Of a stretch of DNA of 32,000 nucleotides, positions 18,701 through 23,834 are shown in pieces (position 1 is the stretch's first letter; each line of letters opens with the position of its first letter). Origin of the DNA: Delftia acidovorans NBRC 14950 (GTDB lineage Bacteria > Pseudomonadota > Gammaproteobacteria > Burkholderiales > Burkholderiaceae_C); contig NZ_BCZP01000011.1 of NCBI RefSeq assembly GCF_001598795.1, positions 30,001-62,000 on the forward strand, read 5' to 3'. The position numbers and the translations under genes are program-made. The notes below the pieces were generated by a model, which saw only the letters and a program-made list of their open reading frames with translations, had not been told where the DNA came from and made no database searches.

Positions 18701-21700
18701 GGTCCTGGCCCTCGACCAAGTCAACGCCTGAGCCTGGCTCGCCTGCCACGGGAAAGGACAGTGACATGGGCAGGGGCCACAGGGGCAGGCTGCAGCCCGC
18801 GACAGGCGCCTCGGCCACCACGGCCGTGGCGCAGGCATCTTCTAGCATGGCAGCGATGCGCGCGCCGGGATAGGCAGGGTCCACGGGAACCACGGTGGCC
18901 CCTGCCTCCCACAACCCGGCCAGCGCCACGATGAGCGCGGGCGAGCGCTGCGCGACCAGCGCCACGCAGTCGCCCGCCTGCAGTCCCTTGCTGCGCAACC
19001 AGCGTGCATAGGCCGAGGCCAGGCGCGACAGCTGCCCATAGTCCATCGCCTGCGGCGCGCCCGCCATGCTGGCCACGGCTGGCCGGCCGGGATGCTGCGC
19101 GGCGGCGCGGCGCAGCAGCGCATCGAGCCGCTGCGGACCCTGGTGCGGCGGGTTCAACCGCTGCGGCTGCGCCGCAGAGCAGGCCAGCCTGTCCAGCAGG
19201 ACCTGTTCATGCGCATCGCACAGCGGATGGCCGTCCAGCGGCGCGGCAGGCTGCTGCAAGGCGGCCTCCAGCAGGGCCGAAAAAGCCGAAGCCAGCCGCG
19301 CCGCCAGCGCGGGGCCGAAGAGATCGGCCGCATATTCGATATGACCGCCGAGCACGAGGTCGTCTTCGCCCTGCCCTGCCAGCAAGGCCAGCGACAGGTC
19401 GCAGCGCGACACCGGTGCGGCCTGGATACGGGGCGGGACGCGCTGCCCGTCGAACGCCAGATCCCAGTCCTGCCCCTGGGAGAGCACGAACATCGCCTGT
19501 GCCAGCGCGGGGCGCTGCGCGGCGCGGGGCACGCCCGAGGACTCCACCACCTGGGCGAAGGGCACATCCTGGTGGCGCAGCGCCTCGGCCAGCTGGTCGC
19601 GCACGTTGCGGGCAAGCACATCCAGGCCGGTACTGCCGCTGACGCCCACGCGCAGGACGACGGTGTTGCTGAAGAAGCCGACCGCGCTGTCCATGCCCTC
19701 GCGTTCGCGCGCGGAAACGGGGGTTGCAACCATGACTTCGGCATCACCGCCAAAGCGTGCCAGGGTGGCAGCCCATACGGCCAGCAGCAACGCAAAGGGC
19801 GTGGTGCCCGCTTGCCGCGCCGCTGCCGTCACCCGCTGCATGCTCGCCGGCGGCAGGCAGAGCGCGGCCCGGGCATTGCGGTAGCTGCGCCGCTGCGGCA
19901 TGCGCTCGGGCTGCAGTCCCAGCACGGCGGGGGCGGCGGCCAGTGCGCGCCGCCAGTATTCAAGCTGCGGTGCCCACAGACCCTTGTCGCCGCACGCGCG
20001 CTGCCACTCGGACACATCGATGCATTGCAGGGGCGGCGGCAGCGCCGACAGATCACCGCCCTGCAGCGCATGCGCCAGCTCCCGCATGAATATTTCGCAG
20101 GACTGGCCGTCCACCGCCGTGTGGTGCATGGAAATCACCAGCGCGTGGTCGTGCATGCCCAGGGTGAGCAGCGTGGCCGAACAGGGCAGCGCGTGGTCCA
20201 GCGCAGGCGGCCGCGCCACTTCGTCGTCCAGAAAGCGCTCCAGCGCCGCTTCGGCACCGGGGCCCGAGAGATCCCGCCGAACCAGCGAGAAATCACCGGC
20301 CTCCCCCACCTGCTGCCACAGCAGGCCATCGCGCAGCACCAGGCGGGTGCGCAAGGCCTCGTGGCGCAGCACCACGGCGCGCAGTGCCTGCTCCAGCCTT
20401 CCGGCATCCAGCCCGGCGCCAGTGCGGTAGCACACCACCTGGTTGTAGGCGCCGCGCTGGGCCTCATGCTGCTCGATCAGCCACAGGCGTTCCTGGTTGA
20501 AGGAGGCGCGAGCCTCGCGCCCCGGATGCGCCGGCCCCCGGCCGATGGCCGGCAGGCCCGCGCCGGGCGCAGCCTGGCCGATGCGCGTCGCCATGGCGGC
20601 CAGCGTCGGCACCTCGAACACGGCCGCCGCGTCCAGCGGCACGCCCCATTCCTGGCGGACGGCCTGGGCCAGCCGGGCCGCATTGAGCGAATGCCCGCCC
20701 ATCATGAAGAAATCCGCGTCGGCGCTGACGGGACGGGAGCCGATCACGCGCTCCCAGACATCGGCCAGGCGCGCCTGTGCGGCCGTCAGCGGCAGGCGGG
20801 GCGCGTTGCCCTCGCCGCTCGCCGGCAGGTCGTCGGGGCCCGGGGCCGGCAAGGCGCGCACATCGACCTTGCCGTTCGGATTGAGCGGCAACTGCGCCAG
20901 ACGCACATAGGCACTGGGCAGCGCTGCACGGGGAAGGCGATCGCGCAACCAGGCATGCAGTGCGGAGGCGGCGGGCGCATGCCCCGGCAGGTGCACCACC
21001 CAAGCGGCCAGAACGGTCTCGCCGTCGGTGCCCACCCATCCGGCGGCGGCCGCGTCGGCCACGCCGGGGTGAAGCAACAGGGCCGCGCGCACCTCCGCAG
21101 GGTCTACGCGAACGCCACGGATTTTCATCTGCCGATCCAGCCGCCCCAGGCAGTCGAGCCCGCCATCGGGCCGCCAGCGGCCCAGGTCGCCGGTGCGAAA
21201 GCCGCGGGCGCCGTCCAGGGCCGCAGTGGGCTGGAAGCGCTGCCGGGTCTCCCGCTCACGGCCCAGGTAGCCGAGCGCCAGGCCATCGCCGCCCACCACG
21301 ATCTCCCCGGCCACCCCCACGGGCAGTGCCTGGCCAGCGGCGTCGCAGACCGCAATGCGGTGGCCCGGAATGGGCCGGCCTATGGGAACGAGATGGCCAC
21401 CGGCCTGTGTCACCTCCTGGAAGGTCGAGTCGGCCGAGATTTCAGAGGAGCCATAGAGGTTGAGCAGGCGGCAGCCCGGCAGGGCCGCAAGAAAGCGGCC
21501 GGCCAGGTCGCTGGAAAGCGCCTCGCCGCTGACCGTACAGTGCCGCAGCGCGGGCAGCAGGCCTGCCGTATCAGCGGCCGGCTCCAGCAGGGCCTTGAGC
21601 AGCGAGGGAACCACCACCAGCCGGGTCACCCCATGGCGTGCCAATGCGCCGGCAAAGGCACGCGGGTCCACCACATCGGCATGCGCCAGCACCACGCTGG

Positions 21701-23834: not shown

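Follow-up and report, generated by a model that had tools for sequence, protein, structure and literature searches.

The 32,000-nucleotide stretch of Delftia acidovorans NBRC 14950 analyzed here (contig NZ_BCZP01000011.1 of assembly GCF_001598795.1, positions 30,001 to 62,000, referred to below as the window) carries a hybrid nonribosomal peptide synthetase (NRPS)-polyketide synthase (PKS) of 3687 amino acids, whose first adenylation (A) domain, named A1, is the subject of this analysis. A1 is most likely an in-line NRPS adenylation domain of the β-alanine-activating clade that includes BlmIV, Ebony and FxbB, with β-alanine as its probable substrate, a reading to which we assign a probability of about 0.78. 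Judged from its sequence, A1 is a member of a known enzyme class, the BlmIV-type β-alanine A domains, and the standard predictors for NRPS domains would very probably assign it in the same way. A first-pass annotation of the window, made by eye, had predicted a β-alanine or β-aminoisobutyrate (BAIBA)-type residue at this position; the match to the BlmIV code and a well supported clade (96 of 100 bootstraps) agree with that prediction, and the sequence cannot separate the two substrates with certainty.

The residue that anchors the α-amine in canonical A domains, Asp235, is present in about 92% of all A domains, and variation at this position has been reported to tell β- from α-amino-acid domains (bioRxiv 10.64898/2026.06.15.732251). 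In A1 the anchor is replaced by Val, and in this respect the domain departs from the canonical α-amino-acid A domains. The specificity code (positions 235, 236, 239, 278, 299, 301, 322, 330, 331 and 517) was read against a GrsA-PheA reference that is 100% identical to residues 183-526 of 1AMU and yields the canonical code DAWTIAAICK. A1 was aligned by MAFFT with the remaining A domains of the window, with 120 database homologues and with labelled β-alanine domains, and by hhalign, profile to profile, with 90 relatives on one side and a profile of GrsA type on the other; in none of the four alignments was there a gap from A3 through A4 or in the A5 loop. In MAFFT, in hhalign and in the phmmer alignment with LgrA the register is the same, Phe696 pairing with Phe234 and Trp701-Glu702 with Trp239-Glu240. 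Therefore, with both flanks placed without gaps, Val697 corresponds to position 235 and Asp698 to position 236, as the first-pass annotation had read them. All the motifs that it quoted were located on the minus strand, at the positions given or close to them, TSGSTG exactly at 21864-21881 and the Val-Asp codons (21741-21746) inside the interval 21723-21749. The structure-based alignment that it proposed as a check was approximated by the profile-profile alignment, which also puts the Asp at 236 and not at 235. In an AlphaFold2 model of A1 (mean pLDDT 90.1) Asp698, residue 200 of the model, is the first residue of the helix 200-211, which fits the description of positions 235, 236 and 239 as sharing one helix in GrsA (bioRxiv 10.64898/2026.06.15.732251). 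The Foldseek and AlphaFold results support the fold and the helix, without residue-level superposition. The TIGR01733 score of A1 was 350.7 bits, for a cutoff of 317.4.

The code obtained in this way is V-D-W-V-T-S-L-A-D-K. The earlier reading, V-D-W-S-T-S-L-A-D-K, was right at nine positions and wrong at 278, which is Val740 rather than Ser744; the latter residue aligns with Thr282 of the GrsA LPPT motif, and Thr278 of GrsA is the Thr ahead of LPPT. As a result of this correction the code comes closer to the signature VDWVISLADK, given by the first-pass annotation as that of β-alanine domains, than the 8 of 10 positions counted there. This signature was not located by a literature text search, and it is consistent with the nine residues (VDWVISLAD) that we extracted from the truncated BlmIV sequence. 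Eight of these nine covered positions are identical in A1, a count that would become 9 of 10 against VDWVISLADK with the invariant Lys517. The specificity call made by eye was essentially right, and its support is stronger than was claimed. Among 13 full-length Delftia orthologues there is no change in the motifs that bear nine of the code residues, position 278 being the one left aside. On these alignments the shifted Asp is not due to chance, because Asp235 is the norm in A domains, the motifs are kept in the 13 orthologues, and the homologues carry the same type of code.

Khayatt et al. 2013 (PMC3630128) provide in their supplement three labelled β-alanine sequences: Ebony, the second A domain (A2) of the exochelin synthetase FxbB, and the first A domain of the bleomycin synthetase BlmIV (Q9FB18). 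Alignment with GrsA gave the codes VDWVISLAD for BlmIV A1, VDAVVSFGD for Ebony and IDTLISSGD for FxbB A2. In all three, as in A1 of Delftia, the A5 motif reads YGS(S/T)E (YGSSE in A1) in place of YGPTE. BlmIV A1, from Streptomyces verticillus, has, like the Delftia A1, the sequences FVDxxWE in A4 and NLYGSSE in A5, is part of an in-line condensation-adenylation-carrier (C-A-T) module, falls in the same clade and shows 48-51% identity to the Delftia domain over the A3-A8 core. The two domains differ in setting: that of BlmIV comes from an actinomycete and incorporates its residue in mid-chain, ahead of two Cys modules, whereas A1 is betaproteobacterial and follows a lipo-initiation step. Ebony, the β-alanyl-amine synthase of Drosophila, and FxbB A2, from Mycobacterium smegmatis, also belong to this clade and combine a non-Asp residue at 235 with Asp236, Ser301 and Asp331, but they match A1 at only 4-6 of the 10 code positions, have small residues at 239 and are 35-40% identical to it. 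Among the labelled domains BLAST ranked BlmIV first (48% identity, 282 bits), followed by the Gly domain of LgrA module 2 (36.7%, 221 bits); the other three A domains of the window showed 33-38% identity to A1.

In a neighbor-joining tree of the A3-A8 core, built from a small comparator set with one serine-type outgroup, A1, 20 database relatives and the three labelled β-alanine domains fell in one clade. The domains with Val, Ile, Leu or Gly at 235 and Asp at 236, including A1, BlmIV, Ebony and FxbB, formed a monophyletic group in 96 of 100 bootstraps, and the clade descending from the common ancestor of A1 and BlmIV was free of Asp235-type domains in all 100 replicates. The nearest relative of A1 outside Delftia is from Azospirillum isscasi (56% identity). 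Nearly all of the best 120 homologues, which come from Acidobacteriota, Chloroflexota, cyanobacteria and proteobacteria, carry the pattern VDWV[VIST]S[LI]ADK; nine of them read exactly VDWVISLADK and seven others have the same code as A1. A single serine-type homologue, P0110 (code DVWHISLVDK), was found among the best matches.

Several observations weigh against this assignment or limit its reach. The comparator set consists of only three labelled β-alanine sequences and four BAIBA codes. BlmIV has Ile at position 299, where A1 has Thr, and the subclade that pairs A1 specifically with BlmIV is weak (15 of 100). Whole-domain identity barely discriminates, as it amounts to 48-51% between A1 and BlmIV and to 47% between A1 and the serine-type P0110, and therefore the assignment rests on the pocket residues and on the topology of the tree. 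Ebony and FxbB take β-alanine in spite of their small residue at 239, so that Trp239 alone does not exclude BAIBA as the substrate. In addition, we found no solved structure of the Val235/Asp236 clade.

It is conceivable, if improbable, that A1 activates another small β-amino acid, most plausibly (R)- or (S)-BAIBA (3-amino-2-methylpropanoate), or accepts it together with β-alanine, as KasE appears to do. The codes of four BAIBA domains, CrpD-A1 (GDAVFSLADK), KasE (LDGTISLADK), SurC-A1 (LDTTVSLADK) and CdeI-A1 (LDTTVSLGDK), are listed in the kasichelin supplement (Fig. S44); the comparison with them was made by codes only. All four have the frame xD...SL(A/G)DK in common with A1, with D236, S301, L322, D331 and K517 conserved and 5-7 of the 10 positions matching, and in the kasichelins one module yields either β-alanine or BAIBA (PMC12305651). 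The chromosomal genes that adjoin the cluster belong to reductive pyrimidine catabolism, a source of both compounds, but they are core genes that are also found at the empty site of strains without the cluster. Taken together, the four BAIBA codes read (L/G)-D-(A/G/T)-(T/V)-x-S-L-(A/G)-D-K, and none of them has the Val235 or the Trp239 of A1. Since the nearest code is that of BlmIV, a β-alanine domain, and the BAIBA codes combine a small residue at 239 with Leu or Gly at 235, β-alanine is favored.

The closest structures in the PDB are those of serine-specific A domains: Txo1 and Txo2 (41-42% identity), FscH, solved with Ser-AMP (40%), and EntF (35%). Txo1-A3/Txo2-A1, FscH and EntF have the highest sequence and structural similarity to A1 in this database. 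In the Txo model Asp235 binds the α-amine, and hydrogen bonds to the side chain of serine can be formed by Ser301 and Asp331 (PMC8244413), both of which are kept in A1. The serine-specific domains carry Asp235, while A1 has Val235, Asp236 and Val278. Compared with the serine code of P0110, A1 retains Trp239, Ser301, Leu322, Asp331 and Lys517; it has Val at 235, Asp at 236 and, where P0110 has His, Val at 278. These similarities to P0110, to the serine-specific structures and to the LgrA Gly domain are what could be expected if the shift of the Asp were an alignment artefact and A1 an ordinary α-amino-acid domain of serine- or glycine-like specificity. We regard this as very improbable, as the flanking Phe234 and Trp239-Glu240 are found at identical spacing, three independent alignment methods introduce no gap, and placing Asp698 at 235 would require an insertion and a deletion within five residues of a helix; moreover, the His278 of the serine code is replaced by Val, and 96-100 of 100 bootstraps leave the Asp235-type domains out of the clade. 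The solanimycin protein SolG, found as an NCBIfam match, was dropped as a guide to the substrate because it is a serine module.

The first-pass annotation treated the shifted Asp as a hallmark of β-amino-acid-activating domains at large. This holds for the in-line class represented by BlmIV, Ebony and the BAIBA domains, but it is too broad, since the structurally characterized VinN-type enzymes VinN, IdnL1, CmiS6 and HitB keep an Asp at 235 (Asp230 in VinN) as the amine anchor and have a β13-β14 loop that is one residue shorter (PMC11253843). These enzymes have the ANL fold and the selection of β-amino acids in common with A1 and differ from it in that they are stand-alone proteins acting on a separate carrier protein. 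A1 departs from the VinN type in all three respects, with Val at 235, a full-length β13-β14 loop without deletion (NLYGSSEISADSTF against NAYGPTETTICATT, aligned without a gap) and a location within a C-A-T module. It would thus reach the selection of a β-amino acid by a structural solution other than that of VinN. The same features bear on the proposal that the side-chain carboxylate of L-Asp is activated and the tethered residue is then decarboxylated to β-alanine, as in the route of the VinN, AfcQ and bolagladin type. Such an Asp route to β-alanine or dehydro-β-alanine has been documented for lipopeptides of Burkholderia in which fatty acyl-AMP ligase (FAAL) starters are likewise employed (PMC12186527). 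For A1 it is highly improbable: the Val235 and the full-length loop are unlike VinN-type enzymes, the PDB match to HitB (1.6e-37) is far weaker than that to Txo2 (2e-98), and we found in the island no gene for PanD or for another pyruvoyl- or pyridoxal phosphate (PLP)-dependent decarboxylase. That A1 is inactive or skipped, so that its module adds no residue, is hardly credible; an MbtH-like protein, a partner that some A domains need, was not found to be encoded in the island with its four A domains (a 72-amino acid open reading frame at locus L008 has no Pfam match), but the A3, A4, A5 and A10 motifs are intact, as are Lys517 and the carrier serine, the TIGR01733 cutoff is passed, and the 3687-amino acid reading frame is retained in 13 of 13 full-length orthologues examined from several Delftia species.

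If A1 is a β-alanine domain, a mechanism can be proposed in which it adenylates β-alanine and loads it on Ser1049 of the carrier domain T1. The β-ammonium group would be held by Asp236 and/or Asp331, possibly with the participation of Ser301, and α-amino acids would be rejected as a consequence of there being no carboxylate left at 235. The pocket may be derived from one of serine type, in which the loss of Asp235 would abolish recognition of the α-amine and the β-ammonium of β-alanine would occupy the place of the serine hydroxyl. The N-terminal C domain would then acylate the β-amino group with the chain delivered by a translationally coupled loading protein, producing an N-acyl-β-alanyl starter, and extension would be expected to proceed by a further amino acid, a single malonyl unit that is ketoreduced and two epimerized amino acids.

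The arrangement of the genes is in agreement with this scheme. Three large genes on the minus strand occupy most of the window (Table 1), with consecutive stop and start codons overlapping as ATGA, and in the order of modules A1 is the first A domain after the acyl-loading protein, which consists of a FAAL-like ligase, a ketoreductase (KR) and an acyl carrier protein (ACP). The loading protein and the first C-A segment of the NRPS-PKS are collinear with the PvdL-type profile PRK05691 (positions 11-564 and 677-1622, respectively), and the profile alignment places the N-terminal C domain within the latter segment. The prediction that the residue follows directly after the acyl starter is therefore supported both by the ATGA overlap with the upstream FAAL-KR-ACP gene and by the collinearity with PvdL. 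In PvdL lipo-initiation proceeds through an acyl ligase-T unit followed by C-A-T, and its first amino acid is Glu; the Delftia system differs in that the loading module is a separate protein with an extra KR and in that the first residue is predicted to be β-alanine. The KR domain of the loading protein (Pfam KR, 106 bits) may indicate a hydroxy or keto acid as the starter in place of a plain fatty acid, and we know of no other lipo-initiation protein with such a domain.

Table 1. Features of the window that are discussed in the text; amino acid numbers refer to the 3687-aa NRPS-PKS and code positions to GrsA.
Feature	Coordinates	Strand	Remarks
CmlA-like diiron β-hydroxylase	543-2147	minus	CmlA_N 241 bits; gene call from locus L008
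Downstream NRPS gene	2140-12774	minus	TubC-type docking domain, then C-A-T-E-C-A-T-E-C
Hybrid NRPS-PKS gene	12771-23834	minus	C-A1-T-C-A2-T-KS-AT-KR-ACP, 3687 aa
T1 carrier domain Ser1049 (FFMMGGHSL)	20688-20690	minus	PP-binding match; expected phosphopantetheine site
A1 adenylation domain, first NRPS module	20850-22340	minus	aa 499-995; Pfam AMP-binding and AMP-binding_C
A10 motif NPNGKVD	20862-20882	minus	Lys989 = position 517 (20868-20870)
A5 motif NLYGSSEISAD	21429-21461	minus	Leu793 = 322 (21456-21458), Ala801 = 330 (21432-21434), Asp802 = 331 (21429-21431)
CTVSGEA	21519-21539	minus	Thr767 = 299 (21534-21536), Ser769 = 301 (21528-21530)
VVPS	21603-21614	minus	
Val740 = position 278 (RLV[V]VPS)	21615-21617	minus	
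AFVDFIWE (A4 region)	21729-21752	minus	Contains the shifted Asp
Trp701 = position 239	21732-21734	minus	
Asp698 = position 236 (GAT)	21741-21743	minus	Gap-free GrsA alignments
Val697 = position 235 (GTC)	21744-21746	minus	Gap-free GrsA alignments
A3 motif TSGSTG	21864-21881	minus	Inside LAYVLYTSGSTGEPKA, 21852-21899
N-terminal condensation domain	22395-23714	minus	aa ~41-480, HHAIIDLWS; Pfam Condensation
Loading protein gene	23831-27967	minus	N-terminal extension, FAAL-like ligase, KR, ACP
tRNA-Val(gac)	28583-28659	minus	Left boundary of island
Hydantoinase/carbamoylase-family amidase	28730-29995	minus	Island flank, beyond tRNA-Val
Dihydropyrimidinase	30020-31480	minus	TIGR02033, 587.6 bits
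NCS1 permease	31511-31951	minus	Island flank

C, condensation; A, adenylation; T, carrier; E, epimerization; KS, ketosynthase; AT, acyltransferase; aa, amino acids.

The N-terminal extension of the loading protein, of about 190 amino acids, looks by eye like the final part of an A domain (…LVAYVVGG…ALPLDDMGAIDEAAL…). The ten-residue code VGFWIASSAK read from the FAAL-like ligase was discarded, as its alignment to GrsA is gapped in the A4 region; the PLDHVGG stretch of this ligase is what we take to be the acyl-ligase form of A4. In-frame tandem peptide repeats were observed at two places on the minus strand, QVS three times in the KS-AT linker of the NRPS-PKS (~15700-15760) and LVP four times in the loading protein (~25230-25270). 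The QVS repeat is present in one to three copies among the Delftia orthologues where it could be located, and its copy number may account for part of the spread in orthologue length (3682-3702 amino acids).

The last NRPS ends in a terminal C domain (HHLLVDGWS, amino acid 3262) and has no thioesterase domain, which suggests condensation as the mode of product release. A Phe-like code, DAWTVAAVAK, is found in its second A domain, and the gene that comes next encodes the CmlA-like diiron β-hydroxylase; together they point to a β-hydroxylated aromatic residue. The codes of the two remaining A domains, DVSQVGAVTK for A2 of the NRPS-PKS (17649-18650, minus strand) and DVENVGGISK for the first A domain of the last NRPS (9700-10760, minus strand), were matched to no verifiable code; the latter resembles the Arg-type code DVESIGGVTK (PMC12283262).

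The NRPS/PKS cluster is carried by a strain-variable island of ~34.5 kb with one border directly at the tRNA-Val(gac) 3' end and the other ~110 bp before phaR; its part within the window is 543-28582. In Delftia assemblies with an identical dihydropyrimidinase the same operon and tRNA-Val are followed either directly by phaR (loci L001 and L004) or by a different, prophage-like insert (locus L002), and the empty-site sequence matches that of the window as far as the tRNA 3' end, the match being taken up again ~110 bp before phaR. The empty sites and the alternative insert thus identify tRNA-Val as a hot spot at which the island is one of the strain-variable occupants. The G+C content is 71-73% in the island and 62-66% in the flank. 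No integrase was seen at the island, and no direct repeats longer than 11 bp were found. Downstream of the window, at locus L008 (22241-28635), are genes for two DUF697 proteins, a Band_7 protein and a phosphopantetheinyl transferase of the cluster's own, together with a type II thioesterase and an ABC transporter, followed by the core genes phaR and miaB. Copies of the 3687-amino acid synthetase and of the dihydropyrimidinase that are identical residue for residue are present on contig KN046795.1 of GCA_000741825.1, and the cluster of synthetases at 90% identity has 49 members, named D. acidovorans, D. tsuruhatensis, D. deserti and Delftia sp.

At the opposite side of tRNA-Val the flank genes continue, in locus L001, into PreT/PreA-like dihydropyrimidine dehydrogenase genes, a pathway that yields β-alanine and BAIBA. 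A role of the dihydropyrimidinase and the amidase as a dedicated supply of β-alanine for the cluster was rejected, since the same genes and tRNA-Val are found at the empty site of strains that lack the island; the pyrimidine genes adjoin the island because of where it was inserted. These core genes of pyrimidine catabolism could nevertheless supply the β-alanine precursor.

Delftia genome papers list one NRPS-type I PKS cluster, that of delftibactin. The identity of the island with the delftibactin cluster was rejected, as no more than four A domains and a single PKS module are encoded in it and as other Delftia strains with an identical flanking gene lack it. A search of the literature found no paper describing the product of the island. 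We propose tentatively, and at somewhat less than even odds, that the island is mobile among Delftia strains at the tRNA-Val hot spot and encodes a so far undescribed N-acyl-β-alanyl peptide-polyketide, unusual in its starter (FAAL-KR-ACP), in a single malonyl unit that is ketoreduced, in two D-residues, in CmlA-type β-hydroxylation and in release by a terminal C domain, and that A1 represents a structurally unsolved mode of β-amino-acid recognition, in which, unlike in VinN, a serine-type pocket changed by D235V, V236D and H278V would hold the β-ammonium on Asp236 and/or Asp331.

The Val235/Asp236 domain type with the code VDWVxSLADK, for which we found no solved structure, is common in genomes and metagenomes. 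For Delftia, the assignment of A1 would specify one building block of an orphan hybrid lipopeptide, a β-alanine beside the lipid tail, which would provide a mass and a fragment signature for this compound.

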